Shown here piece by piece: positions 34,611 to 64,000 of a DNA stretch of 64,000 nucleotides. The notes under the pieces were generated by a model. That model saw nothing but the letters and a program-made list of their open reading frames with translations, ran no database searches and had not been told where the DNA came from. The position numbers were made by a program, and so were the translations under genes. Origin of the DNA: an uncultured Thermoplasmatales archaeon (GTDB lineage: Archaea > Thermoplasmatota > E2 > DHVEG-1); NCBI GenBank assembly GCA_964627915.1, contig CAZVKY010000002.1:1727-65726 (forward strand), given 5' to 3'. The first letter of the stretch is position 1. Each line of letters begins with the position of its first letter.

Positions 34611-34626
34611 ACGAATGATTTGATTA

Positions 34627-41695: not shown

Positions 41696-41931
41696 CTTAA
41701 TAGACATTATTTTTGATATAACAAATGTTTTTCTGAAAAATAATATGATATTTTTAAAGGACCCTCTTTCGTTGCATATGTATCTGCATACACTTTAACG
41801 TATGCAAATGCAAATAAACTATAATAACAGGCGGGTCTTATTTGAGGTTGCACTCTAAAAAAATCTCTATAACTTATGCACTCCAATGAAATGATAAAAA
41901 AAATAAATATGAAAAGGTGGGATGCAAAAAA

Positions 41932-43277: not shown

Positions 43278-43473
43278 GGAGGTTGATATGAATGAATAAA
43301 TTATTAAAATTATTTGGTCGTGATGAATCTGGTGCGATTGGTATTGGTACGATGATTATTTTTATTGCGATGGTGCTTGTTGCGGGTATTGCTGCATCTG
43401 TTCTTATACAGACCAGTTCTCGACTTGAATCACAGGCAATGACCACTGGACAGGATACAACTGATGAAGTAGC
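43268..43473 (+). repeat. second copy of the 206-bp archaellin 5' repeat
   Basis: See 42579..42784. Confidence 0.9.
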
Positions 43474-43942
43474 TACGGGTCTTGAGGTAATCGATGTTCT
43501 TGGTCATGTAACTAGCAGCACAATTGACAATATGACTATCACGGTAAGGCCTCGATCTGGATCGAAAGACATTGATCTTTCAACAGCCGTATTGGAACTT
43601 TCAGATGGAACTAACAAATATGTATTAAGCTATGATACAACCCCAATTTTTAATACACCAGCTGCAGCAGGTATTTTTTCAACTGATGTCTTCGATGATT
43701 TAACTGCCTCAGAATTTGGGATTATCGAACTCAAAGATGCTGATAATTCTTGTAGTGGAGCTACTCCAGTGATTAACAGAGGAGATAAAGTTTCGTTGTC
43801 TGTGAATGTGACTGCGACCTTTTCGGGGATTTCAGAAAGAACAGAGATTACTGGAAGGATTGTTCCTGAAGATGGTGCTGCTGGTATTATTTCTTTTAGG
43901 GTGCCAGCATCATTGACTGATGAAGTCTATGATCTTCAATAA
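43292..43942 (+). CDS. flaB: archaellin FlaB/ArlB paralog 3
   Basis: First 60 codons are nucleotide-identical to paralog 2 (part of the 206-bp repeat). Divergent C-terminal beta domain. AAGGAGGT ribosome-binding site. Confidence 0.9.
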   Translation: MNKLLKLFGRDESGAIGIGTMIIFIAMVLVAGIAASVLIQTSSRLESQAMTTGQDTTDEVATGLEVIDVLGHVTSSTIDNMTITVRPRSGSKDIDLSTAVLELSDGTNKYVLSYDTTPIFNTPAAAGIFSTDVFDDLTASEFGIIELKDADNSCSGATPVINRGDKVSLSVNVTATFSGISERTEITGRIVPEDGAAGIISFRVPASLTDEVYDLQ

Positions 43943-44030
43943 AATGAGTTTGGAAGATTTTTTTCTTCCATTTTTTTATTTTTTTTGACCACAGCTTTTT
44001 TATTTGATTATCTGTTATGTTTTATCGTAC

Positions 44031-44696
44031 ATGATGGGATGCAGACGATTGGATGGGTCTAGTTCTATTCTTAATGCTGATTCGGCAGCGATAGGTATAG
44101 GGACAATGATTATTTTTATTGCTATGATCCTTGTTGCCGGTATTGCTGCATCCGTTCTTCTGCAGACCATGGATGGTTTGCAAGGACAAGCCATGAAAAC
44201 TGGGAAAGAAACCATGGATGATATCTCATCTGGTATAAAAGTTACACAGGTGACTGGTTTTCACCATGAAAATAAAATAACTCAAATGGCTCTTTTTCTT
44301 TCACCAATTGCTGGAAGTAGCGATATAGATCTATCGATGATAACAGTTTCAATTTCTGATGCCAATAAAAAAATTATTTTTTCGTATAATCAAAGTTGTT
44401 TTGCAGAGACAGTAACTGATAGTTTGTTTCAGTCAATTGATACAAGTCTTCTTGCATCAAATGAATTTGGATTGGTGGTGATTAGGGATTCAGATCAATC
44501 ATGTTCAGCAGCGAATCCTGTCATTGATACCTATGATATTGTTTCAATTGTAATTAACTCTACAAAAGCATTCTCTGGGCTCTCACCAAGAACCAAGATT
44601 CAGGGAGTAGTATCCCCTGAGATGGGGATGAGTGGAACTGTTCGATTCACCACTCCTGCTTGTTTTCCCGATCGAATCATCCAGCTTCAACCATAA
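44031..44696 (+). CDS. flaB: archaellin FlaB/ArlB paralog 4 (more divergent)
   Basis: [60 protein letters not shown]. Track ORF begins at ATG 44004, which would add MIICYVLSY. Confidence 0.8.
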   Translation: MMGCRRLDGSSSILNADSAAIGIGTMIIFIAMILVAGIAASVLLQTMDGLQGQAMKTGKETMDDISSGIKVTQVTGFHHENKITQMALFLSPIAGSSDIDLSMITVSISDANKKIIFSYNQSCFAETVTDSLFQSIDTSLLASNEFGLVVIRDSDQSCSAANPVIDTYDIVSIVINSTKAFSGLSPRTKIQGVVSPEMGMSGTVRFTTPACFPDRIIQLQP

Positions 44697-44734
44697 TACT
44701 ATTTTTTTGTTAGAGCCCTCTTTTTCGGTGGAGT

Positions 44735-46366
44735 TTACATACCTAAATAACCACCAAGCACCATACTGATTGCTGCAGCGGTAATAGCTACTATCCAAAC
44801 CAATGGAACAAAATATAGCAGAGTAAGAAGCTTGTGGCTTCCCCTTAGCATCCGAATGGTTAATGCCATCATAAAACTGTGGATGATAAGAACGATAAAA
44901 ACGACAATGAAGGTGTTCATAAACATCTGCGGGTCCATTGCCGTAAGAATACTACCGACATCAATAGTTGTTTCAGAGAAGGGATCACCAGCCATTCCTT
45001 CAAGAAGTATTTCATTAAGATGCCGGGCGATAACAAGTGATGTGTAAGCACTAAACGCGATACCAAAGGTGATTCCAGCAAAAAGAGCAGCTGATGTATT
45101 GACTACAGAAAGTTTTTTTACTCGGAGATCCCGGATTTTTCTGATGTTTTCAGCTATCATTCTTGATGCTTTCCGTGGATTAGCTGATGCAGCGGTGGCC
45201 TGTCGAAACATTTCACTGGATCGTTGTATATGATTACTACCCGTGTCCACACCGAACCATTCCCAGGAATGATTATCATTGATTCGTGTTCGTAATCGTT
45301 TGTATAAATCCTTTACATGTCTGGTGAGAACACCATAGTCTTTTTGACTGAGATAATACACCGATTCATTGATCTTTCCACCTCGCATAGTGGAGATGGA
45401 TCCAAGTGAAGGAAGAAAAGAAAGAAAATTCCGTTCTTTTCTAGCTAATTGTTTTTCCACAAGAAACGTTTTCAATCCAGGTATAATCAATGGGGTAACA
45501 GAGAGAGCAAATAGGATTTCATAAGGAATAGAAGTAATAATGGGGAATTGAATGACATAAAGAATAAAAAGCAATATACCAAGACCAATACTTCCAATAA
45601 TCGTTATTTGAAATAAATGTCGTAAATATTTCTCTGTTTTTCCCCGTTGACCGGTGACATGCCATATTTCATCTGGCGGGATCATTGCTCTTAATAAATA
45701 TAATAGTAATCCTTCGGTTATGATAAGAAGAAATGAGGATAGATAAACAAAGGTGTTCATATCCTCCCCACCGATAACAATAGGAAGAACAATACCTAGT
45801 GACATCACAAAGATAATTGAAATCAACAGGCTTACATAGACCTCATTTAAAATAGTGATGTTTTCATTTGAGGTTTCATACATTGTTTTATAGTCCTCAA
45901 GGACTGCTTCTTGCTCAGTTTCGATGAATTCTCTAGGATCAACACCACTGTTTAAACTCTGTGAGAAACGATCCAAAAAATCCTTAAGAATTTTGCTTGG
46001 TGTTCGTTTTGATAAAAACTGAAAGCTTTTAGCAAGAGGCACCCGCCATTGCTCTGAGAGCACACTTATCTTTCTCATTTCCTCTCCCAGGCTTCCATAG
46101 GCATTGTTTCCACCAAGCATGTTTATGATGTCTTTGAGGGAGAGATCTGAGATTACTAATACCCGGAGATGAGTAATAAAAAAATGAATTTTTCCATTGA
46201 TATCTGCTTCCTTATTCTTCCAGGTGATATACGGATAGAGAATTCCAAGCATGATACACAGAAATCCACCAATAGGAAAGATGATAGGTTGGATTGCAAG
46301 TATACTTAGCCCTAATAATGGCAGAATAATAGGAAGGACACAAATAAGAATCCCTAGAGCTATCAA
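44735..46366 (-). CDS. flaJ: archaellum assembly membrane protein FlaJ/ArlJ (TadC/GspF-like)
   Basis: 543-aa polytopic membrane protein with two cytoplasmic T2SS-F-like domains and 8-9 TM helices. Last gene of the minus-strand fla operon, directly after flaI. Confidence 0.9.
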   Translation of the reverse strand: MIALGILICVLPIILPLLGLSILAIQPIIFPIGGFLCIMLGILYPYITWKNKEADINGKIHFFITHLRVLVISDLSLKDIINMLGGNNAYGSLGEEMRKISVLSEQWRVPLAKSFQFLSKRTPSKILKDFLDRFSQSLNSGVDPREFIETEQEAVLEDYKTMYETSNENITILNEVYVSLLISIIFVMSLGIVLPIVIGGEDMNTFVYLSSFLLIITEGLLLYLLRAMIPPDEIWHVTGQRGKTEKYLRHLFQITIIGSIGLGILLFILYVIQFPIITSIPYEILFALSVTPLIIPGLKTFLVEKQLARKERNFLSFLPSLGSISTMRGGKINESVYYLSQKDYGVLTRHVKDLYKRLRTRINDNHSWEWFGVDTGSNHIQRSSEMFRQATAASANPRKASRMIAENIRKIRDLRVKKLSVVNTSAALFAGITFGIAFSAYTSLVIARHLNEILLEGMAGDPFSETTIDVGSILTAMDPQMFMNTFIVVFIVLIIHSFMMALTIRMLRGSHKLLTLLYFVPLVWIVAITAAAISMVLGGYLGM

Positions 46367-46509
46367 GGGTATTAATACGGTTCGAATAAAGGCTTTTTTA
46401 TCTGGTAATGATGCGTAAGCGATTTCAAGTTCTTTAATTCCCTCAATATGGTGAACGGTTTCTTTTATCGGTAACTCATTCGTTTTTTTTGTAGATTCTT
46501 TTTTTCTGT

Positions 46510-48168
46510 TTATTCCACTGAAAATGGTAATCCCTCCGCTCCATTTCGGTAAAAACTCCAGATAGATTGTACCACATCATAGTAATCAAAGATTTCTTCT
46601 TCCACCATTCGTGTCAGGATTTGTTTTCGTAGTTCATATTCATCATAGATCTCAGCGGTATCGACATATCCAGCGTTTTTTGCGATTTTTTCCTCTAAAA
46701 TAAAACTATTTTTGTTAGCTGTGAACACATGATCATCGCTTTCAGATTTCCAATCAAATGCCCTTCGTGCCATGATACCATCGACTTCTCGATTGTATCC
46801 TTCTATTTCATCGATGGAAACACATCGTCTCATTAATTTCCCATTTCGTTCGATGGCTAATTGAATAAAGACAAAATCAAGGTTATCCATGAATGTTTTT
46901 GGAACATTGATGGGATCACCGGTGAACCGCTGAATGACTTTAGTGACATCTCCAGCATGAAAGGTGGTCATCACCGGATGCCCGGTTTGCATTGCTTGAA
47001 AAACAATGTTTCCTTCTGCCCCTCGCACTTCACCAGGGATGATATAATCAGGACGGGATCGTAATGCTGCCTTGAGTAAATCAAATAAATCAACTTGGCC
47101 TTCAGAGGGACCACTGGTTTTTGTGAGTAATCGTTGCCATACTGTATGAGGCACTTGTAGTTCAGGGGTTCCCTCTGCAGTATAGATCTTTCGTTCCGGT
47201 GGAATAAATGGGATGATCGCATTCATGGTAGTTGTTTTTCCACAAGCTGTTCCGCCGCAGAGAAAAAAACTGCGCCCATATTGCAGACAAAGCCAGAGAT
47301 AGGCAGCGATTCCCGGGCTAAGAGTTTGGCATCTAATTAATTGGGTGACGCTAATGGGATTTTCGGTGAAACGGCGGATGGTCATACTAGGTCCTTTGAT
47401 GCTTACTGCTGAACTATAGATAATGTTTCCCCGACTTCCATCTGGAAGCACTCCATCAACGATGGGTCGACCTTCACTTACTGGTGTTCCCATTCGTTCA
47501 CTCAGTATTTTTGCAAAAGCAGGTGCTTCTTTTTCAGAGACAATGACATTTGTTTTAATCATTCCAAATATTTTGTGTATGAGATGAATGGGTTCTCCTG
47601 CGATCAGATGAATGTCTTCGATGTAGGGATCACGCATGAAACATTCAATGTTTGCTCCTCCCAGCAGTTCCTTGAAGATATAATATTGTATCTTCTTTTT
47701 TTGCGGATCAGTTGCTTTAATGGTTTTTTTTGTGAGTTGAAATAGTTTGTTTTTAGAGGAATTGGTTTTTTGCACCTGTTTACTTACTATTACGTATTCA
47801 TCAATGAGTTCACTTAGGTTTTTTCTAAGTTGTTTATCAGTCACCGCACTTTTTTTTTCAATGATGTTTTCTAGGATTATTGTAAGTAATTCATCTTTTT
47901 TTTGTGTTTCTTCTTTGGTTAGTTTCGGTTCGATTGCATGATATTCTAATCCTTTTCCGTTTTCATTTGGGTAGATATGCACAAAAATAAATCCTCGAGT
48001 TAGATAGAGAATATTGATTTGTTGTTGTGATTTTAATGATGTTGAAAGGGTTGCATAAAACCCTGGCATTTCTTTATCCTTTTCTAGATTATTTAAATAG
48101 TCTTGAACATGGGGATTTTTCTGCAGAAGGTTCTTTATTTCTTTCTCACGTAATTGTGTCATCAGCAC
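46510..48168 (-). CDS. flaI: archaellum ATPase FlaI/ArlI (paralog 2)
   Basis: Walker A FFLCGGTACGKTTTMNAIIPFIPP, Asp box and His box of the secretion-ATPase family (GEVRGAEG, MQTGHPVMTTFHA). 552 aa. About 55 % identical to the adjacent upstream paralog. Confidence 0.9.
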   Translation of the reverse strand: MLMTQLREKEIKNLLQKNPHVQDYLNNLEKDKEMPGFYATLSTSLKSQQQINILYLTRGFIFVHIYPNENGKGLEYHAIEPKLTKEETQKKDELLTIILENIIEKKSAVTDKQLRKNLSELIDEYVIVSKQVQKTNSSKNKLFQLTKKTIKATDPQKKKIQYYIFKELLGGANIECFMRDPYIEDIHLIAGEPIHLIHKIFGMIKTNVIVSEKEAPAFAKILSERMGTPVSEGRPIVDGVLPDGSRGNIIYSSAVSIKGPSMTIRRFTENPISVTQLIRCQTLSPGIAAYLWLCLQYGRSFFLCGGTACGKTTTMNAIIPFIPPERKIYTAEGTPELQVPHTVWQRLLTKTSGPSEGQVDLFDLLKAALRSRPDYIIPGEVRGAEGNIVFQAMQTGHPVMTTFHAGDVTKVIQRFTGDPINVPKTFMDNLDFVFIQLAIERNGKLMRRCVSIDEIEGYNREVDGIMARRAFDWKSESDDHVFTANKNSFILEEKIAKNAGYVDTAEIYDEYELRKQILTRMVEEEIFDYYDVVQSIWSFYRNGAEGLPFSVE

Positions 48169-48175
48169 TCATTTC

Positions 48176-49798
48176 CTATAGCGAAAAAGGAAGTCCATCT
48201 TTTCCATGTCGATAGTAATTCCAGATGATGTCTACCACTTGATAATAATCAAATATCTCTTGGTCTACCATCTGTTGAAGTATTTTTTTTCGGGTATCAA
48301 ATTCTTCATAGATTTTCATGGTATCATTTAGACCAGCGGTTTTTGCAATCCGTTGTTCTAAAATGTAGCTATTTCTATTTGCTTTGAATGCATGAGTATC
48401 ATCTGCTGCATTCCATAAAAATGCCTTTCTTGAGATGATACCATCGACTTCTTTGTTGTACCCTTCGATTTCATCTAAGGATAATACACGTCGGATTCGT
48501 TTTCCTTTCCGTTCAACGGCCATTTGAATGAGGACTACGTCAAGGTTATCCATGAAGGTCTTTGGAACATTGATAGGATGACCAGTGAACCGTTGAATCA
48601 CTTTGGTAACTGATCCAGCATGAAACGTGGTAATCACCGGATGCCCGGTTTGCATGGCCTGAAAGACCACTCGTCCTTCTTCACCCCGGGTTTCACCAGG
48701 GATAATATAATCAGGTCGTGAGCGAAGACCAGCAAATAACAAATCGCTCATATCAATATGGGATTCTTTTGGACCAGTGGATTTTGTTAAAAGTTGTTGC
48801 CAAACATCATGTGGTGCTATGACTTCAGGAGTGTTTTCCACGGAATAGATTTTTTTTTCTGGTGGAATAAAAGGAATAATGGCATTGGAGGTTGTTGTTT
48901 TTCCTGAGGCGGTTTCTCCACAGACAAAAAGACTTCGACTATATTGCAGACAGAGCCAGAGGTAGGCTCCCACTGAAACATCAAAAGTCCCCCAGTTTAT
49001 GAGTTGAGTGACACTTAGTGGTGTTTCACTGAATTTTCGCACGGTCATGGTAGGTCCTTTTAAGCTGATATCTTTGCTATGAATGATGTTCACCCGGCTG
49101 CCATCAGGAAGTGTGCCATCAGCGATGGGTTGTCCTTCACTTACGGGACTTCCTATCTTTTCACTGAAATCCTGGGAGAAATCACTAGCCCAGTTTTCAT
49201 CGATGTTGATGTTTGTTTCCACCATATCAAATATTTTATGAATAAGATGAACCCGTTGGCCGGTGATGATATGGATATCCTCTAGATAGGGATCTCTCAT
49301 GAAACATTCAAGTGGTCCACCACCGATGATTTCTTTAGTGATGTCATATTCGATTTTTTGTTTTTCATAATCCGTGGTCTGGATTTTTTTCCCAATAAGA
49401 AAATTGCTTGAAATTTTTTTAGTAGTAGTTATTTCATCTAAATAATGTAAGATTGCCTGACGGATTTCCTCATCTGTTTTCACTTTTTCTCTGAAAGGAG
49501 CGATTTCAAAAATGCGTTCTAGAATTTGATTTCTTTTCTTTGTTTCTTCGATGGATAATTCTGGTTCAATGGAATGATATTCTAGGAAATCCGCTTCAGG
49601 TTTTTGATAGATATGAATAAAGACAACACCTTTTGTGGGATAAATGATGTTTGGATTTTCTATTGATTTGAGATCACGGTTTAATTCTTCATAAAATGCA
49701 GGGCGATCCATGCTCTTTTTTACTTCTTCTAGATATGCCTGCAGATGTGGGTGTTGTTCTAACAGTTTTTTCTCCTCTGCTTCGGTCATTTTCCCCAT
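48176..49798 (-). CDS. flaI: archaellum ATPase FlaI/ArlI (paralog 1)
   Basis: Walker A LFVCGETASGKTTTSNAIIPFIPP, GETRGEEG, MQTGHPVITTFHA. 540 aa with the full-length FlaI N-terminal domain. Confidence 0.9.
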   Translation of the reverse strand: MGKMTEAEEKKLLEQHPHLQAYLEEVKKSMDRPAFYEELNRDLKSIENPNIIYPTKGVVFIHIYQKPEADFLEYHSIEPELSIEETKKRNQILERIFEIAPFREKVKTDEEIRQAILHYLDEITTTKKISSNFLIGKKIQTTDYEKQKIEYDITKEIIGGGPLECFMRDPYLEDIHIITGQRVHLIHKIFDMVETNINIDENWASDFSQDFSEKIGSPVSEGQPIADGTLPDGSRVNIIHSKDISLKGPTMTVRKFSETPLSVTQLINWGTFDVSVGAYLWLCLQYSRSLFVCGETASGKTTTSNAIIPFIPPEKKIYSVENTPEVIAPHDVWQQLLTKSTGPKESHIDMSDLLFAGLRSRPDYIIPGETRGEEGRVVFQAMQTGHPVITTFHAGSVTKVIQRFTGHPINVPKTFMDNLDVVLIQMAVERKGKRIRRVLSLDEIEGYNKEVDGIISRKAFLWNAADDTHAFKANRNSYILEQRIAKTAGLNDTMKIYEEFDTRKKILQQMVDQEIFDYYQVVDIIWNYYRHGKDGLPFSL

Positions 49799-49812
49799 GT
49801 TTTTTCCTCTGC

Positions 49813-50529
49813 TTAGAAGGCTACTCCGCTGGATTCAATGGTTAATCCAACACCAGGTTTGACGGAGAAAGTGGTCATCGGTTCATATTTATGTATTGCT
49901 CCATTGAATTTTTCAAGGTAGATGTTATGAACCGTGCCCACGCCAGGCATTTTTTCTTTAGAAATTTTAAAATGAACATCGGTCATCATTTTGAACCTGC
50001 GATGGATTTCTTCATCCCATTCGGTGTGATTTGCGGTAAGAAAAATGATTTTTCCCGATCCAATTAATCGGTTGAAAAAATTGGTAAGCTCTGGAAGATT
50101 TTCTGTTGTTAGGCTTTTGTTAAGTAAGCTTGAGATTGAATCAATGAAAATGATATCATTTTCAAATAATTGAGGAAACGTTAGTAATTGTTTTAAAAAT
50201 GTTTCCCGAGGATGCGTTTCAGCTAGAGTGACCTCTGTAGATATAAAAAAGAATTTTCCTTTCATTAAGAACTGTCGGACATTATATCCAACTGATGCGG
50301 TTTGTCGGAGGAATCGTTTGATGGTAAATTGTGTTGAGATGAGCGAGCAGGTGTTTGCATTTTTTAGAAAAGAATAGCAAAATCGTTGACAGAAAATACT
50401 TTTTCCAGTTCCTTCTTCACCCTCAATAAAGATAAGGGATCCATTGGGTATTCCTATGCCAAATCGCTCAGCAAAACCATCTTTTTCACCATTTCTTTCT
50501 AAAATCAACGATTTTGCATTTCTTAACAT
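49813..50529 (-). CDS. flaH: archaellum KaiC/RecA-like ATP-binding protein FlaH/ArlH
   Basis: GIGIPNGSLIFIEGEEGTGKSIFCQRF (Walker A). 238 aa. Position between flaG and flaI. Confidence 0.85.
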   Translation of the reverse strand: MLRNAKSLILERNGEKDGFAERFGIGIPNGSLIFIEGEEGTGKSIFCQRFCYSFLKNANTCSLISTQFTIKRFLRQTASVGYNVRQFLMKGKFFFISTEVTLAETHPRETFLKQLLTFPQLFENDIIFIDSISSLLNKSLTTENLPELTNFFNRLIGSGKIIFLTANHTEWDEEIHRRFKMMTDVHFKISKEKMPGVGTVHNIYLEKFNGAIHKYEPMTTFSVKPGVGLTIESSGVAF

Positions 50530-50541
50530 GATGTCACCTTT

Positions 50542-50985
50542 TTATATTTTGAATGTAAAATCATCATCAACTCCACAGGGTCCAACAACACGGATTTGAT
50601 GGTATCCTGAGGTGATGATTGAGCTGTTAATGTGAAGCATGGTGTATTCTGAAGGGTAGAGTGAAATATTTGAAAAAGAAAAAGCGTTTGTGATGATGAT
50701 TTCTCCATCGATAAATACCTGCATTGTTTCATTTGAGGTAGTTAGTTTATTTGAACCTGTATTTCTTATGTAAAAAATATACTGATTATCTGATAAAGGG
50801 ATCATTTCAGGATCATTGATGATAGAAAATTCAGTATCCAATTGTGTTTCTACTCGTTTTCCTTTTTCATTGAATGAACCACTGATGTTAGTGGTAACAG
50901 CAACAAAAATACCAGATACTGTACCTGCGACGATAAGAGCGGCAACGAAAAATATCACATGTGATCCAGTAACACTAAAACCCAT
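50542..50985 (-). CDS. flaG: archaellum protein FlaG/ArlG
   Basis: MGFSVTGSHVIFFVAALIVAGTVSG N-terminus (MGFS start typical of FlaF/FlaG), then a beta-rich domain. Named FlaG by gene order (second of the F/G pair). Confidence 0.7.
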   Translation of the reverse strand: MGFSVTGSHVIFFVAALIVAGTVSGIFVAVTTNISGSFNEKGKRVETQLDTEFSIINDPEMIPLSDNQYIFYIRNTGSNKLTTSNETMQVFIDGEIIITNAFSFSNISLYPSEYTMLHINSSIITSGYHQIRVVGPCGVDDDFTFKI

Positions 50986-50997
50986 AGGTATCCCTTT

Positions 50998-51423
50998 TTA
51001 ATCTTTGTTATGATAATAACTTTCCACCATGTTTGAGGTGATTAATTTTATTCGAGGATTATCTGTTTGGTCTGTATTATAACTGGTAAGATTTGTTTGT
51101 TTTTCAGGGAATAGATATGCATCATTGAAGATAAATTCTTTAATGCTTCCATTAATTAAGAGCATACATTTTTCCACATCGATTGTTTCACTTCCACTGT
51201 TCTCTATGGTTATGGTGTAATCATAGGTCGAGCCATTTATGGATGTTGTCACATTAGTAATACTGAAATCGGTTTGTGATCGAGTTATTTCCCGCTTTAT
51301 CATATGTTGTTGTGATTCATGGATATCTGTGAGTTGGGGAAGAATCCCTCCTGAAATAATCTCTAGTGAAAGTAGAATCGAGACGCCTATGATAGCAAAT
51401 GATGCGGAAAGTGAAAACCCCAT
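50998..51423 (-). CDS. flaF: archaellum protein FlaF/ArlF
   Basis: MGFSLSASFAIIGVSILLSLEIISGG N-terminal anchor and a beta-sandwich domain with sequons (NVTT, NGST, NGSI, NLTS). First of the F/G pair. Confidence 0.7.
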   Translation of the reverse strand: MGFSLSASFAIIGVSILLSLEIISGGILPQLTDIHESQQHMIKREITRSQTDFSITNVTTSINGSTYDYTITIENSGSETIDVEKCMLLINGSIKEFIFNDAYLFPEKQTNLTSYNTDQTDNPRIKLITSNMVESYYHNKD

Positions 51424-51461
51424 TTTATTAATCCCACCAATTTTTATATCTTATTTGTTAT

Positions 51462-52265
51462 TTATTTTTTCATATTGGTTCCATTTATTTCTTTTCCCAT
51501 TTTTTCTAATTTTGTATTGATTTTAAACAAAAAATCATCATGAACTGCGGATCCTCTCAATTTTTGAATAAACATAAATGATTGAAGATGATCATCAATG
51601 GTAAAAACAGGTTGATGATGCTCTTTACTATCGGTATCCACAGTGAAGGTGATTCCTTTTGCATATTTCATTAAATCTAAGCGAACATCTTCAGTGATCC
51701 AGTTAATGCTGACATAATAATCAAGGATGTCTGAGAGATATTGCTGGCCTAGTTTATCCGAAAGGTATTGTAACCATTTCATGAGTACGACTACGTTTTC
51801 CGGGGTGTTTTTTATCCCATTGAGTGGTTGCATATCTTCATCTGTTGATCGATGGTTAGATTGAACAGATGGGAAACCTGTTTTTTCATTCCGTTTTGTT
51901 TCCTCAAAAAAGTGTTGTTGAATCTCTTCTATGTTTGCTATTTTTCCTTCAATATATGATAATTCTTCGTTTAGTTTTTGTAAGGAATCTGAGTCCGCTG
52001 TTTTATTAGCTGATACGAAATTATTTCCAATAGCTGTTTCCTTTTCTTTGGTGCTATTTTTCCCAGAGTCAACGTTATCCTTGAAATCTTTTTTTGACTG
52101 AATAGTGGAAATCAATCTTAAAACGTCATTTTTGCTTAGTTCTAGTTTTCGTTGTTGCACTTTTTTAAAAATTATATCAGTAACTCGAGCTGTGATTTTA
52201 TTTTTTTCAACAAGATCATTTAACAATGCCTGTAATTGATCTTGGTTTAAGTCTTTTTCATTCAT
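51462..52265 (-). CDS. flaD: archaellum accessory protein FlaD/E (ArlD/E) family
   Basis: Coiled-coil N-terminal half. Conserved C-terminal FlaD/E block ENVVVLMKWLQYLSDKLGQQYLSDILDYYVSINWITEDVRLDLMKYAKGI. Confidence 0.7.
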   Translation of the reverse strand: MNEKDLNQDQLQALLNDLVEKNKITARVTDIIFKKVQQRKLELSKNDVLRLISTIQSKKDFKDNVDSGKNSTKEKETAIGNNFVSANKTADSDSLQKLNEELSYIEGKIANIEEIQQHFFEETKRNEKTGFPSVQSNHRSTDEDMQPLNGIKNTPENVVVLMKWLQYLSDKLGQQYLSDILDYYVSINWITEDVRLDLMKYAKGITFTVDTDSKEHHQPVFTIDDHLQSFMFIQKLRGSAVHDDFLFKINTKLEKMGKEINGTNMKK

Positions 52266-52299
52266 TTTTCATCCCATCCTTTTTTTAATATAATCTATT

Positions 52300-53007
52300 C
52301 TATGCTACGGTATCTAAAAATAATGAAATCTTTCGTTTTAGTTCATAATCCTCATCGACCGTATCGATTGCTTCATCCACCATATGTTCTAATTGTTCAT
52401 CTGTGACACTGAAATTTAGTGGGTTAGAAGAGGAAAAACTTTCATTTTTAGGTTCATCTTCGGTTTTTACTGAAAGAGGTGAATTAATCGATGGTGTTAA
52501 CCCTTTTTTTTGCCTCTCTTTTAACTTTCCTTGTTCTAAATCAGATTCTATTTGCATCATTTTGGTTTTCAGATTCTCGATTTCCTTAGAATAATTTTCC
52601 AATGCATCAATCCGTTTCTTTGTGACTCTTGATAAACCAACAAAAGGATTCATCTGTTCAGAGACAATCTCGTAAAGACTGACCAAATCATCAAGGTTTT
52701 CGGTTACACTATTTATTTGTTCGGTAAGTTCTTCCAGTTGTTTTTTATTTTCATTGATCCTGAAATCAAATTCCTTTATCTGCTTAAGATATTCCTTTTT
52801 TTCTTTAAGCTGTTTTTTTAACGGTTGTTCTTGCTGATTTTGATTGTTTTTTAATTGCTTTTTCTGTGATTCTTGTTCATCTGATGATGATTCCTTGTTA
52901 TCATCCGAATCAGTTTCGTCAACCTGAGATGAATTATCGTTCAATTTGATGACTCTCCGTAGGTTATCTTTCCCATCACTTTTTGCAGTGGTTTCTTTCT
53001 GCTGCAT
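52300..53007 (-). CDS. flaC: archaellum accessory protein, FlaC-like (coiled-coil)
   Basis: Acidic Ser-rich N-terminus, long coiled coil with LVSLYEIVSEQMNPFVG (FlaC/D/E-type YE.VS...NPF block). First gene of the operon. Assignment by position plus motif. Confidence 0.55.
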   Translation of the reverse strand: MQQKETTAKSDGKDNLRRVIKLNDNSSQVDETDSDDNKESSSDEQESQKKQLKNNQNQQEQPLKKQLKEKKEYLKQIKEFDFRINENKKQLEELTEQINSVTENLDDLVSLYEIVSEQMNPFVGLSRVTKKRIDALENYSKEIENLKTKMMQIESDLEQGKLKERQKKGLTPSINSPLSVKTEDEPKNESFSSSNPLNFSVTDEQLEHMVDEAIDTVDEDYELKRKISLFLDTVA

Positions 53008-58822: not shown

Positions 58823-59929
58823 TTAAGCGATGCTGATATCATCACAAAGATAAACATTCTGAATGGCATGAAGAAGTTTGATACCTTCATTCATCGGGCG
58901 TTGAAATGCTTTTCTACCCGAGATTAAACCCGTTCCACCAGCTCGTTTGTTGATAACTGCGGTGCGAACTGCTTGTTGAAAATCATTGTGTCCTGAGGCA
59001 CCTCCAGAGTTAATGAGCCCAACTCGGCCCATGTAACAATTTGCGATCTGGTAACGGGTAAGATCAATAGGGTGATCACTAGCAAGTTCAGTATATGCTC
59101 GTTCATCGAACTTACCATATGATGATCCATTTTCATTAAGAACTGCATATCCACCATTGATGGTTGGTTGTTTTTGTTTGACAATATCTGCTTCAATGGT
59201 CACTCCCAGATGGTTTGCTTGACCAGTAAGATCAGCCGATGCATGATAATCACGGTCTTCAACCTTGTAAACGCTGTTTCGTAAGTAACACCAAAGCACT
59301 GTTGCCATCCCGAGTTCATGAGCTTTTTTAAATGCCTTGCTTACCTCTTGTATCTGACGATTTGATTCTTTTGATCCATAGTAAATCGTTGCTCCTACTG
59401 CGGCGGCACCAAGATCCCAGGCTTGTTTTACATCTGAAAACATGATTTGATCATATGTATTTGGATAGGTTAACAATTCATTATGATTAAGTTTCACAAT
59501 AAACGGTATTTTATGTGCATATTTTCGAGAAACACTTCCTAACACGCCAAGGGTGGAAGCAACACCATTGCAGCCACCATTTATTGCAAGTTTTATGATT
59601 TGTTCGGGGTCAAAATAGATTGGATTTGGGGTAAATGACGCAGCAGCTGAATGCTCAATACCTTGATCCACTGGCAGGATTGAAACATAACCTGTTCCTG
59701 CTAGTCTGCCATGGTTGAACAATGATGAAAGATTTCGAAGGACTTGTTCATTTCGATCGGAATCTTGATAGGAACGCTCGATGAAATCAGGACCTGGAAG
59801 ATAGAGATCTTTTTTTGGAATTCGATCACATTGATGATTCAATAAGTAATCTGCTTCTTCACCAAGATATTCCTTGATGGTGTGAATATCAGTGGAATGA
59901 TCTTTATTGATTTCTTTTAATTCTTGCAT
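58823..59929 (-). CDS. fbaB: class I fructose-bisphosphate aldolase (DhnA/FbaB type)
   Basis: Matches E. coli FbaB along the full length from memory ([89 protein letters not shown]). Confidence 0.9.
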
Positions 59930-59995
59930 AACTAATCATCTCTCCTCAAAAGGGATATGAAAATAGGCATTAAAAATGATTTCTATTGAAAAATA

Positions 59996-60979
59996 TTAGG
60001 CATATAAGGTGCCTTTTTTATGCCGTTTACCAAGAACATGGATCATATCCTTAGTCATTTTTGAAAGATCATAATCGGGTTTCCAGTTCCATTCCTTTCG
60101 TGCTGGGCTATCATCGATAGTGCTTGGCCAGGAATCAGCGATTTGTTGCCTGAAATCAGGTTCAAATTCACAGGTGAAATCTGGAATATGTTTTTGTATT
60201 TCACTAGCAAGTTCTTTTGCTGAAAAACTCATCGCAGTGACATTGAAATCACTATGATGGTTCAATGAAGCAAGATCAGCATCCATTAAATCAATGGTTG
60301 CCTTTATACAATCAGGCATATACATCATAGGAAGCATAGTGTCTTCTTTCACAAAACAAGTATATTTTTGATTCTCAATTGCTTCATAAAAGATTTCCAC
60401 TGCATAATCTGTTGTTCCACCGCCAGGTAAGGTTTCATTGCTTATGATACCAGGGTATCGCATCCCTCGAACATCTAAGTTAAATTTGTTGAAATAGTAA
60501 TCACCAAGTAGTTCACCAGATACTTTTGAAACACCATACATGGTAGTGGGTTTCAAAACGGTTTCCTGTGGTGTGTTTTCTTTTGGTGTTTCAGGTCCAA
60601 AAACAGCAATGGAGCTGGGAACAAAAACACGTGTCATATCATAATCTATGGCAAGGTCTAGGATGTTAAGCAATCCATTGATATTGACATGCCAGCAGAG
60701 TTGTGGGTTATTTTCTCCCACCGCAGATAGAATTGCAGCCATATTGTAAATGGTGTCGATGTCATATTTTTTTATCACTGATTCAACGGTTTTTTTATCG
60801 GTGATATCCAGGTATTCAAATGGTCCTGAATTTAGAATAGTTTCACTTGGTTTTGTTTTTCGGCCTGTAGCAATGACGTTGTCATTTCCAAATTTTTCAC
60901 GTAATGACATTGTTAATTCTGATCCGATTTGCCCTGCAGACCCAGTGACCAGGATATGTTTCATTGTTTTTTTTGACAT
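59996..60979 (-). CDS. NAD-dependent epimerase/dehydratase family protein (extended SDR, L-threonine 3-dehydrogenase-like)
   Basis: Rossmann motif ILVTGSAGQIGSEL, catalytic YGVSKVSGE (YxxxK), NMAAILSAVGENNP. Substrate not assignable from sequence. Confidence 0.8.
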   Translation of the reverse strand: MSKKTMKHILVTGSAGQIGSELTMSLREKFGNDNVIATGRKTKPSETILNSGPFEYLDITDKKTVESVIKKYDIDTIYNMAAILSAVGENNPQLCWHVNINGLLNILDLAIDYDMTRVFVPSSIAVFGPETPKENTPQETVLKPTTMYGVSKVSGELLGDYYFNKFNLDVRGMRYPGIISNETLPGGGTTDYAVEIFYEAIENQKYTCFVKEDTMLPMMYMPDCIKATIDLMDADLASLNHHSDFNVTAMSFSAKELASEIQKHIPDFTCEFEPDFRQQIADSWPSTIDDSPARKEWNWKPDYDLSKMTKDMIHVLGKRHKKGTLYA

Positions 60980-61082: not shown

Positions 61083-62108
61083 TTATGGTGTTTTGAATCT
61101 GAGGTATTCGATGATTTGTGGTTTGTTCTCTATATGCTCGACTTTATTTCCATAGGTGATTTTCCCAGTGGTTTCAACATGATACCGCCAGTAATGAATA
61201 ATGAAAATTCGATCATAATGAACATCGATTGTGTTCATTTGAAGATGAGCACTCACTAAAGTATCATTGTTTTTATCTTTTTCTTGGAACGTTATCTCAA
61301 AAGTGTGAGGAATTTGATATTGATCTATTTTTTTATATGCTGATGGAGTAAACGAAATATTGCTGGGGTGAATAGTAGTGAATAATGATTTTTTGCTATT
61401 ATTATTTAATCGGTTGATCACGGCGATGAGATCTTGTTTTGTTGGTGAAGCAATAGTATTTGCCCAGGTGAGATGAAGTGTTTCTGCAGAGATTCGGCCC
61501 CAGAACCAACCAATGTTTTGAAGCACGGTTGTTGGGGAATACCCCCAGTTATGATCATGATAACCTGATCCATTCACGTTCATTTTTTTATCATTAAATA
61601 TCATGGTTCCTTGAACAGAAGCCAGTGGAAGCGGAACCGTCCAGCATGTTGATTCAGTTTCAATCTTCCAACCTGGTGTTTTACCAATAAACTTCAGATG
61701 TAAATGAACATCCTCAATTCCTAGATCAATAGTATAAATCCATGGTTTTCCCTGTTTTTTTGTATCAACTGAAAACGATAAGACTGTTTTTTCATCAACC
61801 TGAACGATTGGTTTTTCTCTACTGAAATCACTCTGAGAAAATATTGATCGCTTGATTTTTTCAATGATTAACTGCCCGTTATGATAGATGTTGATTCTTG
61901 TTTGCAGCAATCCTCTGTTTTTGATATGATAAATACGAAATCCAATATGAACACTATATCCATTTTCAAAAACAGCATCAAAATACCACCATTCAATATC
62001 AAGAAGATATTTTGTTCCATGATAGCTATCATCTTTAGGGCTGATTGATTGAGCTGGAAGATATCTCAACTGTTTTTTCGATGGTTTTAAATGTGAATTT
62101 GATTTCAT
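61083..62108 (-). CDS. CrtC-like (hydroxyneurosporene synthase / carotenoid 1,2-hydratase family) protein
   Basis: N-terminal EWWYFDAVFENGYSVHIGF (WWY.DA motif of CrtC/AttH-like proteins). GSGYHDHNWG block. 341 aa soluble protein. Family assignment by motif memory only. Confidence 0.55.
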   Translation of the reverse strand: MKSNSHLKPSKKQLRYLPAQSISPKDDSYHGTKYLLDIEWWYFDAVFENGYSVHIGFRIYHIKNRGLLQTRINIYHNGQLIIEKIKRSIFSQSDFSREKPIVQVDEKTVLSFSVDTKKQGKPWIYTIDLGIEDVHLHLKFIGKTPGWKIETESTCWTVPLPLASVQGTMIFNDKKMNVNGSGYHDHNWGYSPTTVLQNIGWFWGRISAETLHLTWANTIASPTKQDLIAVINRLNNNSKKSLFTTIHPSNISFTPSAYKKIDQYQIPHTFEITFQEKDKNNDTLVSAHLQMNTIDVHYDRIFIIHYWRYHVETTGKITYGNKVEHIENKPQIIEYLRFKTP

Positions 62109-62119
62109 GGGTATCTTAT

Positions 62120-63130
62120 ATGATTCGTGAGTATCTGAAATTGGCTCGTTCGTTTAATGCCGTGCTCACTGGTATTTCTCCAGTGATGGGCGCTATTGCA
62201 ATGGGACAATATGATATTGGTATGTTATTTATTTTATTTCTCATTGGTTTTTTTGGTCATTCTTTTGGTTTTGTTTTTAATGATATCATTGATTATAACA
62301 TTGATAAAACATCAAAGGAAATAAGCGATCGTCCATTAATCAGTGGAACCATTTCGTTGCGAAATGCCTGGATTTTTGCTTTTCTTTGTATGTTTCTAGC
62401 ATTTTTCATTGCGTTTCTTATTGCGTATCAATCCTCTATTTATTATCCATTGTTGATCTTAGCGGTTTCAGCAAGTTTTATCGCAATCTATGATTTAATC
62501 AGTAAAAAACTACCCTTCATGGATGTTCTTGTGGCTATTGGTATCTTCTTTTTCATTTTATATGGTGCTTCAACTCAAGTAAAGAGTCTTTCTGAATTAA
62601 CATTTCTCACTTGGATTGTTTGTATTTTAGGATCGATTCAGGTATTGTTCATGCAGATTGTAGCCGGAGGATTAAAGGATATTGAAAATGATTATCAGAC
62701 TGGTGCAAAAACAGCAGCGGTACGACTTGGTGCTCGGGTTGTTGATAAAAAACTTCATGTGCCTTTTGCTTTTCAACTATTGGCATTTAGTATTCAAATA
62801 GCCGATATAATTCTTGTTTTTTCTCCTTTTATACTAGTTAACGATTTTTCTTCCAATCTTTACATTCGGTTTTTTCAATGGATGTTTTTAATTATCATCA
62901 GTACTCTTATGCTTTTGTTGTCTTATCGATTGATGAATATGGATGTATTTAATCGGAAAAAAGCACGTACCTATATCGGCAGTCATTACATGATTAATTT
63001 TGCATTAGTTCCTATTATGTTAATGGCAGTAAATCCATGGGCGGGCATCCTTGTTTTTTTCCCTGCTCTTGGTTTTGTGTTATCTAATATCATTCTTCAT
63101 AAAACAGTGTTACAACCAAAGACCATGTAA
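62120..63130 (+). CDS. UbiA-family prenyltransferase (paralog 1)
   Basis: Asp-rich motifs NDIIDYNIDK (NDxxDxxxD) and LKDIENDYQTG (DxxxD). 8-9 TM helices. ATG 62120 (MIREYLKL) starts 12 nt from the divergent CrtC-like gene. Track start 62045 overlaps that gene and is not preferred. Confidence 0.8.
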   Translation: MIREYLKLARSFNAVLTGISPVMGAIAMGQYDIGMLFILFLIGFFGHSFGFVFNDIIDYNIDKTSKEISDRPLISGTISLRNAWIFAFLCMFLAFFIAFLIAYQSSIYYPLLILAVSASFIAIYDLISKKLPFMDVLVAIGIFFFILYGASTQVKSLSELTFLTWIVCILGSIQVLFMQIVAGGLKDIENDYQTGAKTAAVRLGARVVDKKLHVPFAFQLLAFSIQIADIILVFSPFILVNDFSSNLYIRFFQWMFLIIISTLMLLLSYRLMNMDVFNRKKARTYIGSHYMINFALVPIMLMAVNPWAGILVFFPALGFVLSNIILHKTVLQPKTM

Positions 63131-63171
63131 AAAAGAAAAACTCATATACCCTTGATTTTATCAATATCTTC

Positions 63172-64000
63172 ATGGGTACGATTGCTGATTATTTTGTTCT
63201 TCTCAGATTCCCTGGTCTAGGAGGTCTTGCTATCCCTCCCGTTATTGCAGCATTAACCGTTGGAACATTTGACTTATTTACTCTAATGTTGTTGTTTCTT
63301 CTTGGTGCATTTTCCTCTATTTTTGGTTTTGTGCTCAATGATTTCATTGATGTTGAAGTTGATAAAAAATCAGAGGATCTTAAAAAAAGACCTCTTGTTA
63401 GTGGTACAATTTCAAAGACGGCTGCCCTATGGATTTGTTTTACTTGTATTATGCTTACTATGCTTACTTTTTTCATTCTTTTTTATGGAAAAAATATAAC
63501 ATATTTGAGATTTATCTCAGTAATTTGTATACTGATTGCTTGGCTGCTTGGAAGCATTTATGATGTGTATGGAAAAAAGATTTTTGCTTCTGATATTCTT
63601 GTTGCTCTTTCTGTATCCTTTATTTTTCTCATTGGAGCGTTTGCCGTAAATAAACAACCAACAATATTTACCTGGATTATTTTTGTGTTAACCTTTAATA
63701 ATCTCTTTCATATGAATGCAGTGGAAGGCGGCATTAAAGACGCAGATCATGATGTATTGATGAATGTTAATAATATTGCTTTACAATCCGGTGTTCGTGT
63801 TGATGGTGATTTACTAAGAATCCCAGGAAAGTTTAAACTGTTAGGGATGATAGTTCGTCTTTCCTCGGTTTTTTTGTTGTTCATTCCTTTTCTTTTTTTC
63901 AATCAGCCATATCTTCTCTGGCAGCTTATTATTCTTGGGCTGGCATCAATTGGTGTTCTCTTTTTCAGTATAAAATTATTATCCTTAACTCGGTTTAATC
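63172..64000 (+). CDS. UbiA-family prenyltransferase (paralog 2; 3' end beyond window)
   Basis: MGTIADYFVLLRFPGLGGLAIPPVIAA..., motifs LNDFIDVEVDKK and IKDADHDVLMNV. Open through position 64000. Absent from the ORF track because no stop in the window. Confidence 0.75.
   Translation, partial: MGTIADYFVLLRFPGLGGLAIPPVIAALTVGTFDLFTLMLLFLLGAFSSIFGFVLNDFIDVEVDKKSEDLKKRPLVSGTISKTAALWICFTCIMLTMLTFFILFYGKNITYLRFISVICILIAWLLGSIYDVYGKKIFASDILVALSVSFIFLIGAFAVNKQPTIFTWIIFVLTFNNLFHMNAVEGGIKDADHDVLMNVNNIALQSGVRVDGDLLRIPGKFKLLGMIVRLSSVFLLFIPFLFFNQPYLLWQLIILGLASIGVLFFSIKLLSLTRFN

Follow-up and report, generated by a model that had tools for sequence, protein, structure and literature searches.

A CrtC-like putative hydratase gene and UbiA-family prenyltransferase genes form a conserved cluster in uncultured sediment Thermoplasmatota

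In haloarchaea, bacterioruberin genes follow the logic crtD-lyeJ-cruF, and the hydratase CruF belongs to a membrane-protein family unrelated to CrtC. For CrtC itself, mutagenesis has shown that D268, W110, W283 and W285 of the RgCrtC enzyme are essential (PMC12402844). Hgs, an AttH-like hydroxy-GDGT synthase of Bathyarchaeota and ANME, makes OH-GDGT and was shown to hydrate a double bond of the isoprenoid chain to a tertiary hydroxyl group; the same preprint reported no Hgs from Thermoplasmatota at the BLAST threshold that it applied (Garcia et al., bioRxiv 10.1101/2025.10.20.683597). The CrtI-family hydroxyarchaeol synthase Has of Methanosarcina acetivorans hydrates DGGGP, according to Mori 2015 as cited in PMC10821996.

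We analysed a stretch of 64,000 nucleotides (the window) from an uncultured Thermoplasmatales archaeon, which carries the following features.

59996-60979, minus strand: extended-SDR gene (NAD-dependent epimerase/dehydratase family; PF01370, 107 bits)
61083-62108, minus strand: CrtC-like gene (CrtCL, subfamily C0), coding for a soluble protein of 341 aa
61494-61511, minus strand: GWFWGR motif of CrtCL (W201-x-W203) with the predicted cation-pi residues, invariant in a 31-member alignment
61542-61565, minus strand: GYHDHNWG motif of CrtCL (residues 182-189), invariant in 31 family members, with D185 as the predicted catalytic acid
61977-61994, minus strand: EWWYFD motif of CrtCL (residues 39-44), where the N-terminal lipocalin barrel begins, invariant in the 31-member alignment
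62109-62119: gap of 11 bp separating the start codons of the divergent genes CrtCL and UbiA1, as read from the sequence itself
62120-63130, plus strand: UbiA1 gene, coding for an intramembrane UbiA-family prenyltransferase of 336 aa
62279-62305 and 62678-62692, plus strand: Asp-rich motifs NDIIDYNID and DIEND of UbiA1
63172-64000, plus strand: UbiA2 gene, a UbiA1 paralogue, of which the 5' 276 codons precede the cut at the window end
63337-63363 and 63739-63753, plus strand: Asp-rich motifs NDFIDVEVD and DADHD of UbiA2

The three open reading frames are as the preliminary description had them, with the WWYFD and YHDHNWG blocks and both pairs of UbiA motifs in place, except that 11 bp and not 12 bp separate CrtCL from UbiA1. 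Since CrtCL, UbiA1 and UbiA2 each have hundreds of homologues (40-100% identity), they are real genes and not chance ORFs. CrtCL and UbiA1 stand head to head, and both N-termini are conserved across orthologues. The start codon of UbiA1 is the ATG at 62120 and not the TTG further upstream with which the mechanical ORF begins, as its N-terminus MIREYLKLARSFNAV is kept in 29 orthologues. A possible TTTTAAAT element can be seen at 62085-62092, some 30 nt before this ATG. By comparison with a 78%-identical orthologue of 335 aa (in L002), about 59 C-terminal residues of UbiA2 are estimated to lie beyond the window. The trio is the visible 5' end of a cluster conserved in uncultured sediment Thermoplasmatota.

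CrtCL had been described as a soluble protein of the CrtC family. Its solubility (no transmembrane segment) and its superfamily were borne out by fold and motifs, whereas the Pfam search with PF07143 (CrtC) fell short, at 19.8 bits (E 1.3e-3, profile positions 1-167 of 168) against a gathering cut-off of 22.5 bits. Subfamily C1 scored 21.3 bits and an Asgard homologue 25.0, which passes; among the matches listed, about 10 of 120 CrtCL homologues carried a precomputed PF07143 match. We found 230 homologues, nearly all from Thermoplasmatota. Because the Pfam match is sub-threshold, we based the superfamily placement on fold and motifs and not on the profile alone. The AF2 model (pLDDT 87.8) is all-beta, with two consecutive lipocalin-like beta-barrels, the defining architecture of the AttH/CrtC/kievitone-hydratase superfamily, to which the modelled fold clearly belongs. 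The best Foldseek match was AttH 2ich (E 3.9e-11, TM 0.63/0.67), followed by 9g2i (E 2.9e-10) and kievitone hydratase 7a0t (E 4.8e-9), all with a probability of 1.0; 25-phosphosteroid lyase (also 1.0) and fungal Diels-Alderases were matched as well.

The motifs agree with this placement. E39, W41 and Y42 are also invariant in comparison with AttH and a protein named carotenoid 1,2-hydratase by PGAP. D185 aligns with the Asp of WLDREW in AttH, of WYDRQW in kievitone hydratase and of the PGAP-named protein, itself bearing GYHDHNWG, and its position corresponds to D268 of RgCrtC by Pfam domain coordinates. By sequence, D185 fits the Y-x-D motif that holds the catalytic Asp of CrtC-type hydratases. 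All 31 homologues keep W40/W41 and W201-x-W203, and the spacing fits the Trp residues W110, W283 and W285 of RgCrtC, with W201-x-W203 following the Asp at the distance of W283/W285; from this spacing, and not from an alignment to a characterised CrtC, we infer that they are equivalents. The paralogous subfamily C2 is devoid of W201 and W203. The matches of a tblastn search of plasmids for bona fide crtC were all AttH-type or PGAP-named proteins, none of them from a carotenoid cluster. We predict that CrtCL is a cofactor-independent hydratase of isoprenoid C=C bonds.

UbiA1 and UbiA2 both pass the Pfam cut-off of PF01040 (82.7 and 78.2 bits against 34.2) and both combine this match with the NDxxDxxxD and DxxxD motifs of the UbiA superfamily. 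At 35% identity over their full length, the second is indeed a paralogue of the first, as had been proposed. UbiA1 orthologues are 62-100% identical and form a highly conserved, Thermoplasmatota-specific subfamily; JGI names them generically 4-hydroxybenzoate polyprenyltransferase. The UbiA1 model (AF2, pLDDT 83) has a multi-helix membrane fold whose best Foldseek match is the DGGGP synthase MjDGGGPS 6m31 (E 1.4e-8, 20% identity), UBIAD1 being marginal (E 8.6e-3). Among PDB sequences, UbiA1 matched only ApUbiA 4od4 and UbiA2 had no match. The suggestion that the two copies are unlike housekeeping enzymes withstood the NCBIfam searches, in which UbiA1 and UbiA2 scored 54/58/73 and 27/31/62 bits with the DGGGP synthase models PRK12882/12883/12884 (cut-offs 296/353/269), 38.9 and 36.6 with haem O synthase TIGR01473 (210), and 52.9 and 45.8 with ubiA_proteo (275), none of which reaches its cut-off. 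With the MqnP model we obtained 23 bits against 420, and MenA gave no match. Models of haloarchaeal-type prenyltransferases were likewise absent from the UbiA1/UbiA2 results, whereas a different UbiA, in locus L125, did match them. Six UbiA-family types occur in these loci, and since every one of them stays under the NCBIfam cut-offs, profile libraries cannot assign their substrates.

In relatives, the cluster runs from one or two CrtC/AttH-like genes through UbiA1, one to three UbiA2-like genes and a CrtI-family flavoprotein gene to, often, a third UbiA. We sampled 80 metagenome loci centred on UbiA1, 28 of them with full flanks. A CrtCL gene lay within 3.5 kb of UbiA1 in 21 of these 28 and a UbiA2-like gene was present in 25, while the CrtI-like gene followed downstream in 28/29 loci and the third UbiA was found in 13/22. 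Of 23 loci centred on CrtCL in species genomes, 11 had a UbiA gene within 2.5 kb; about half of the CrtCL genes in such genomes are solitary, among them the two copies seen in the complete genome CP070798.1. Orientation varies (divergent, convergent, co-directional, and tandem CrtCL-UbiA2 pairs in L093) and adjacency persists. Moreover, the presence of CrtCL tracks that of UbiA2-like genes (30/5/1/5, Fisher p = 0.0018, uncorrected for phylogeny). These data bear out the earlier idea that the hydratase and prenyltransferase genes belong together: their linkage is conserved and functionally meaningful in these non-halophilic, AT-rich Thermoplasmatota. All carriers are uncultured, and what the analysis shows is the structure of the genes, the fold, the conservation of the motifs and the linkage. 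Literature searches on CrtC with UbiA in archaea, AttH with prenyltransferases in archaea, and Thermoprofundales lipids with UbiA returned nothing relevant.

The flavoprotein gene lies just beyond the region equivalent to the window; its best solved relative is the CrtI-like oxidoreductase 3ka7 of M. mazei, and it scored below the cut-off of every NCBIfam CrtI/CrtD model. Of the phytoene synthase and desaturase genes looked for near the cluster, the synthase is missing from the window and from the annotated 21-kb locus L162, and a CrtI-family gene does occur downstream in relatives. More generally, no crtB, crtI, crtD or crtF is present in the window or in L162, the CrtI-family gene of relatives, of uncertain function, being the sole candidate. 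The third UbiA has MjDGGGPS as its best PDB sequence match (E 9e-11), and JGI names its orthologues DGGGP synthase; by sequence it is likely the housekeeping DGGGP synthase of the lineage, and we judged UbiA1 less likely to fill that role. In the window's own subclade (L082, L085, L087, L090), the cluster comes without the DGGGPS-like gene. Genes for GGGPS, GGR, CarS or Tes were not seen beside the cluster in the annotated neighbourhoods of relatives, and no radical-SAM gene occurs among the cluster genes of L162 or L163 or among the conserved neighbour families. The SDR, previously suggested as a possible source of a dehydrogenase step, always pairs with a class I FBA (aldolase) gene, even where the two lie 6-7 kb from the cluster (L111, L135, L140, L154, L160). 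Because it travels with the aldolase gene wherever the cluster lies, we regard it as a syntenic neighbour and not as a demonstrable pathway member, and we rejected it as the pathway dehydrogenase.

We propose, with a confidence evenly balanced between for and against, that the cluster tailors isoprenoid chains, most likely those of ether lipids, while they are still unsaturated, combining prenyl transfer with an acid-catalysed hydration that yields a tertiary alcohol. Its product would probably be a modified membrane lipid, so far uncharacterised. We favour membrane ether lipids over a pigment because the UbiA1 model is nearest to archaeal DGGGP synthase and the cluster often ends in a probable DGGGP synthase gene. 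UbiA1 and UbiA2 would ionise a prenyl diphosphate at their two Asp-rich Mg sites and pass the prenyl group to a putative acceptor; our favoured guess is O-prenylation of a glycerol-phosphate-type or hydroxylated lipid, because the nearest structural relative is DGGGP synthase. In CrtCL, the hydrophobic chain may enter the cleft between the two beta-barrels, where D185 would protonate an isoprene C=C, W41, W201 and W203 would steady the tertiary carbocation, and water would add to give the tertiary alcohol. This chemistry would be that of CrtC, kievitone hydratase and the archaeal hydroxy-GDGT synthase Hgs. The downstream flavoprotein may be a hydroxyarchaeol-synthase-like hydratase or a desaturase, and the steps could follow in this order. 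Counting against such tailoring are the lyases and Diels-Alderases that the AttH fold also houses, the sub-threshold CrtC profile score, the solitary CrtCL genes, the absence of the DGGGPS-like gene from the cluster of the window's subclade and the lack of GGGPS, GGR, CarS or Tes genes beside the annotated clusters.

Several other explanations have to be weighed. UbiA1 and UbiA2 might be housekeeping ether-lipid synthases, for example DGGGPS isoenzymes that serve chains of different length or enzymes standing in for GGGPS, with CrtCL acting not as a hydratase of their product but as a lipid-binding or carrier protein, a lyase or just a conserved neighbour. UbiA1 is indeed as highly conserved as a core enzyme would be and has DGGGPS as its best structural match, the C2 proteins without W-x-W may be non-catalytic, the AttH fold includes non-hydratases and many CrtCL genes stand alone. 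We nevertheless consider this rather unlikely, given that the third UbiA is a better DGGGPS candidate, that the acid and Trp residues are fully invariant in the CrtCL subfamily of the window, which argues for catalysis, and that the co-occurrence of CrtCL with UbiA2-like genes and the tandem pairs in L093 argue for functional pairing. A prenylated aromatic or quinone pathway is quite unlikely in our view. There, UbiA1 and UbiA2, like UbiA, MenA or MqnP, would attach a prenyl chain to an aromatic head group, CrtCL would add water to this side chain as its structural neighbour kievitone hydratase does, and the flavoprotein would reduce or oxidise the chain. The JGI name of UbiA1 orthologues, the single PDB sequence match to ApUbiA and the 52.9 bits with ubiA_proteo point in this direction, but all quinone prenyltransferase models stay far under their cut-offs, the UBIAD1 structural match is marginal next to that of DGGGPS, and genes for quinone head-group biosynthesis were not found in the window or around the cluster in annotated relatives.

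The preliminary description raised a C50-carotenoid of the bacterioruberin type, and that or another pigment now seems very unlikely to us. UbiA would serve as lycopene elongase, the CrtI-like protein as a CrtD-type desaturase, and CrtCL would hydrate the added C5 units. The enzyme types do match the haloarchaeal logic, the CrtI-family gene follows UbiA2 in nearly all relatives (28/29), and CrtC and kievitone hydratase hydrate terminal prenyl units (PMC12402844, PMC5805349). However, neither the window nor L162 holds a phytoene synthase or other carotenoid gene, UbiA1 and UbiA2 do not match the haloarchaeal-type models that the other UbiA of L125 matched, the UbiA1 fold is nearest to DGGGP synthase, and the cluster often ends in a probable gene for that enzyme. 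In addition, contig names place the carriers in sediment metagenomes, where a pigment would be unexpected. Chance synteny is strongly disfavoured, and we grant it hardly any probability: the SDR does illustrate that conserved synteny occurs here with no obvious functional link, but the hydratase-prenyltransferase adjacency has outlasted repeated changes in gene order and direction in three CrtCL subfamilies and in dozens of divergent loci, which are not near-clonal (UbiA1 60-76% and CrtCL 30-60% identical).

Returning to ether-lipid tailoring, we think it unlikely that the DGGGPS-like paralogues UbiA1 and UbiA2, with one or more CrtC-like hydratases, go so far as to build an undescribed class of membrane lipid. 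In one possible form, hydration might give isoprenoid ether-lipid chains with tertiary alcohols, and O-prenylation or extension by C5 would follow, a bacterioruberin-style chemistry that could be applied to archaeol or GDGT precursors; if true, the sediment Thermoplasmatota would gain a diagnostic lipid biomarker of their own. Thermoplasmatota of this type are abundant in sediments and, because none is cultured, their lipids cannot be attributed to them. A compact, strongly conserved cluster in which AttH-type hydratases and a Has-like flavoprotein are physically tied to DGGGPS-like prenyltransferases amounts to five to seven concrete genes, a set suited to expression in the archaeal-lipid chassis strains that already exist. 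For a phylum reported without Hgs, it suggests a Ted/Hgs-independent way of making isoprenoid ether lipids that are hydroxylated or modified in some other manner, and it may help to find the source of orphan sedimentary lipid biomarkers.

Among known systems, Hgs, compared here by description, is likewise an archaeal soluble AttH/CrtC-superfamily protein tied genomically to membrane-lipid enzymes. Its gene overlaps that of the B12-radical-SAM desaturase Ted, which has no counterpart in the CrtCL cluster, where the partners are UbiA prenyltransferases and a CrtI-like flavoprotein. With CrtC (PF07143; RgCrtC), CrtCL shares the two-barrel lipocalin-like fold, the Y-x-D acid motif and, by prediction, the W-x-W and N-terminal Trp residues as well as cofactor-independent hydration of a terminal isoprene unit; it differs in staying under the Pfam cut-off, in having neither membrane anchor nor carotenoid gene context, and in its archaeal carriers. 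Kievitone hydratase (7a0q/7a0t), AttH NE1406 (2ich) and Agrobacterium AttH have the CrtCL fold (Foldseek E 4e-11 to 6e-9) with an aligned Asp in the catalytic region, and kievitone hydratase acts on a prenyl group installed by a prenyltransferase. Identity to CrtCL is only 10-20%, however, the substrates are unrelated, and they are either secreted fungal proteins or bacterial ones of unknown function.

The cluster flavoprotein, compared by family only, resembles Has as a CrtI/amine-oxidase-family protein that would act on the product of a UbiA-family ether-lipid synthase, but its gene, seen in relatives, lies outside the window and under all NCBIfam CrtI/CrtD cut-offs. DGGGP synthase (MjDGGGPS 6m31; PRK12882-12884) shares with UbiA1 the UbiA fold and two Asp-rich motifs and is the closest solved structure to its model, and a probable orthologue co-clusters with UbiA1 and UbiA2 in many relatives. 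In contrast, identity is 20%, UbiA1 reaches 54-73 bits against cut-offs of 269-353, and both UbiA1 and UbiA2 exceed it in length by about 55 residues and have an additional pair of helices at the C-terminus. The haloarchaeal crtD-lyeJ-cruF cluster likewise brings together UbiA prenyl transfer, a CrtI-family flavoprotein and a prenyl hydratase, although no lycopene pathway is seen here and the NCBIfam searches gave UbiA1 and UbiA2 no match to a haloarchaeal-type prenyltransferase model that would hint at a lycopene elongase. With the CrtI-family gene found beyond the window in relatives, the formal parallel to the bacterioruberin cluster (UbiA, CrtD and hydratase) is therefore closer than had been noticed at first.

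Region 61083-64000 of the window holds three substantial ORFs:

61083-62108, minus strand: CrtCL, a CrtC/AttH-like protein of 341 aa without any hydrophobic segment (maximal 19-residue Kyte-Doolittle mean of 0.94)
62120-63130, plus strand: UbiA1, a UbiA-family prenyltransferase of 336 aa, starting at the ATG at 62120
63172-64000, plus strand: UbiA2, a second UbiA-family prenyltransferase, with 276 codons before the window ends

The divergent start codons of CrtCL and UbiA1 are separated by 11 bp, and the N-terminus of UbiA1 (MIREYLKL) is conserved among its orthologues. Given that a 78%-identical orthologue of UbiA2 is 335 aa long, about 59 residues of UbiA2 are missing here. By eye, we also noticed a TTTTAAAT element (62085-62092) within the first codons of CrtCL and ~30 nt ahead of the UbiA1 start codon, which would fit a near-leaderless archaeal UbiA1 transcript with its promoter embedded in the divergent CrtCL gene.

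GC content is ~0.33-0.39 throughout the window, and Pfam annotation revealed no isoprenoid genes in the 64 kb other than these three. The rest is housekeeping: an archaellum operon, glutamine synthetase, topoisomerase VI, a class I aldolase, tRNA-modification enzymes and an isoleucyl-type tRNA synthetase. The archaellum operon (39206-53007) comprises at least three archaellin genes, FlaJ (T2SSF), a KaiC-like FlaH, FlaD/E, FlaC and two adjoining FlaI-like T2SSE ATPases (46510-48168 and 48176-49798). Next to it, three sensor genes stand in a row on the minus strand (32433-39062), encoding a HisKA/HATPase kinase, a response-regulator-PAS-DUF835 protein and an 817-aa multi-PAS HisKA_2 kinase. A 558-aa ORF at 15119-16795 has no Pfam match at E ≤ 1e-5.

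UbiA1 and UbiA2 both pass PF01040, and each carries two Asp-rich motifs. Their 35% identity over the full length indicates that they are paralogues of one subfamily, with a C-terminal extension in common. Neither approached any NCBIfam equivalog cut-off: they scored 27-73 bits with the DGGGP synthase (DGGGPS) models (cut-offs 269-353), 37-39 bits with haem O synthase (210), 46-53 bits with 4-HB polyprenyltransferase (275) and 23 bits with MqnP (420), while the MenA model did not match either of them. By these profile scores, neither copy falls into the housekeeping DGGGPS or haem O synthase groups; the preliminary description had named such a grouping of both copies as a result that would count against its reading. 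UbiA1 orthologues are unusually conserved (62-100% identity among the best 120) and bear generic names only. In PDB sequence searches, ApUbiA was the sole match of UbiA1 and UbiA2 had none. The UbiA1 model (pLDDT 83) is nearest to M. jannaschii DGGGP synthase 6m31 (E 1.4e-8, 20% identity), followed by the homologues from A. fulgidus and from A. pernix, UBIAD1 being marginal.

CrtCL aligns end to end with the Pfam CrtC N-terminal lipocalin domain (profile positions 1-167 of 168), at a score (19.8 bits, E 1.3e-3) under the cut-off of 22.5 bits; the Diels-Alderase N-domain matches about as well, and an NCBIfam search gave no match. With 31 homologues as input, AlphaFold gave a confident, all-beta model (pLDDT 87.8). 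In a Foldseek search of the PDB, every match at probability 1.0 belonged to the AttH/CrtC superfamily, the best being AttH NE1406 (2ich, E 3.9e-11), followed by the fungal pericyclases CghA, Fsa2 and Phm7, a 25-phosphosteroid lyase and kievitone hydratase. The known catalytic members of this fold act on hydrophobic, mostly isoprenoid substrates; judging by its name and bound ligands, the lyase catalyses a related elimination reaction in the side chain of a steroid.

The family alignment shows the invariant blocks DD..H, EWWYFD, GYHDHNW, GWFWGR, YWRYHV and QIIE. In profile-to-PDB alignment, D185 of CrtCL falls on the Asp of WLDREW in AttH and of WYDRQW in kievitone hydratase. A five-way alignment including Agrobacterium AttH and a bacterial protein annotated as carotenoid 1,2-hydratase kept E39, W41, Y42 and D185 invariant, and the latter protein has a GYHDHNWG identical to that of CrtCL. 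D268, W110, W283 and W285 are essential in Rubrivivax CrtC (PMC12402844); from Pfam coordinates and residue spacings, D185, W41 and W201/W203 are their likely counterparts. Because the acid and Trp residues of CrtC thus have likely counterparts, the window-type subfamily (C0) likely has a functional acid/cation-π hydratase site. A second CrtC-like paralogue, subfamily C2 (L162:8999-9991 and 18 other members), often adjoins UbiA1; it keeps D185 and lacks W201, W203 and W188 (GANFGK instead of GWFWGR), and may be inactive or differ in activity.

Nearly all homologues are from MAGs of uncultured Thermoplasmatota and from metagenomes of sediment type. We scanned species-representative genomes with a CrtCL alignment and then classified the neighbours by six-frame phmmer. 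In 12-13 Thermoplasmatota loci, CrtCL had a UbiA1 orthologue together with UbiA2-like genes as neighbours, and gene orientation differed between loci. Clustering of neighbours revealed two more conserved genes 3' of UbiA2. One encodes a 460-aa flavoprotein of the CrtI/amine-oxidase family (PF01593). Among solved structures, its best match is an oxidoreductase of M. mazei (3ka7, E 8e-18), which also ranks first among the structural neighbours of CRTI (PMC3382138). The other is a third UbiA, with DGGGP synthase as best PDB sequence match (E 9e-11) and orthologues 75-91% identical, named geranylgeranylglycerol-phosphate geranylgeranyltransferase by JGI.

Metagenome contigs, scanned independently with UbiA1 as the centre, yielded 80 loci. 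Among those with sufficient flank, CrtCL lay within 3.5 kb of UbiA1 in 21/28 (two copies in 10 of the 21), a UbiA2-like gene was nearby in 25/28, the flavoprotein was downstream in 28/29 and a DGGGPS-like gene was nearby in 13/22. CrtCL and UbiA2-like genes occurred together in 30 loci, UbiA2-like alone in 5, CrtCL alone in 1 and neither in 5 (Fisher p = 0.0018, with loci treated as independent and kinship ignored). Centring on CrtCL instead, a UbiA gene was within 2.5 kb at 6/9 C0 loci and 5/12 loci of subfamily C1. In species genomes, roughly every second CrtCL gene is solitary, among them the two copies observed in the complete genome CP070798.1. On Ga0209164_1000009, the 575-kb contig of L162, an annotated compact island of seven genes (two CrtCL, four UbiA and one amine-oxidase gene) is flanked by translation and histidine-utilisation genes. 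Since the order in the window's closest relatives (L002, L003, L082, L085, L087, L090) is aldolase, SDR, CrtCL, UbiA1, UbiA2, flavoprotein, the flavoprotein gene almost certainly lies just past base 64000.

Some loci carry variations. L093 has an internal duplication with tandem CrtCL-UbiA2 pairs (9299-13400), and in L160 the UbiA2-flavoprotein pair recurs ~5 kb further downstream, ahead of the DGGGPS-like gene (17216-20857). Another, shorter DGGGPS/ChlG-like UbiA (~300 aa, NQxxDxxxD...KPYRPIP), under all NCBIfam cut-offs, lies ~4 kb downstream on the opposite strand in L102, L111 (17911-18834), L125 (11700-12608) and L147, in whose genomes 12 kb can hold as many as six genes of the UbiA family. 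In Asgard archaea and one Conexivisphaerales genome (L038-L058, L066, L069, L071, L079), the AttH/CrtC-like homologue scores above the Pfam CrtC cut-off (25.0 bits) and is the last gene of a conserved block with all genes on one strand (e.g. L038:4985-11017). Before it come a FAD_binding_4 oxidase, a CCG/4Fe-4S protein, a second FAD oxidase and a 170-aa protein without Pfam match, a partner set unlike those of Thermoplasmatota and Bathyarchaeota.

The extended-SDR gene had been suggested as a possible source of a dehydrogenase step; we found no evidence of its membership in the module. Together with the class I fructose-bisphosphate aldolase gene it makes up a pair (58823-60979 in the window) that is strictly conserved across these Thermoplasmatota, whether adjacent to the cluster or not, and the pair is intact 6-7 kb away in L111, L135, L140, L154 and L160. 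It is likewise kept in L086, L116 and L128, where SDR and UbiA1 are direct neighbours, without an intervening CrtCL gene.

CrtC and kievitone hydratase form tertiary alcohols by hydrating a terminal or prenyl isoprene unit (PMC12402844, PMC5805349). In archaea, the AttH-like hydroxy-GDGT synthase Hgs converts unsaturated GDGTs to OH-GDGTs (bioRxiv 10.1101/2025.10.20.683597), and the CrtI-family hydroxyarchaeol synthase Has is cited as adding water to DGGGP across its C2-C3 bond (Mori et al. 2015, cited in PMC10821996). Because of these precedents, and since the Thermoplasmatota cluster unites both protein types with DGGGPS-like prenyltransferases, often with the probable DGGGPS too, we favour a module tailoring unsaturated isoprenoid ether-lipid intermediates, in which UbiA1 and UbiA2 would serve as prenyltransferases and CrtCL as the hydratase of an isoprene double bond. 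A quinone pathway, an alternative to ether lipids, lacks support from profiles, structures or gene context.

Literature searches, confined to one library of papers, found nothing on this hydratase-prenyltransferase combination. The bacterioruberin-type pathway of the preliminary description holds as a chemical analogue, but the Thermoplasmatota cluster has no carotenoid context. Hgs is coupled to a B12-radical-SAM desaturase, whereas no such gene occurs in the cluster among the annotated relative loci, and Thermoplasmatota are stated to be without Hgs at the preprint's threshold (bioRxiv 10.1101/2025.10.20.683597). The hydratase type itself being already known, what is new here is best called a conserved partner set for a predicted AttH/CrtC-type isoprenoid hydratase.
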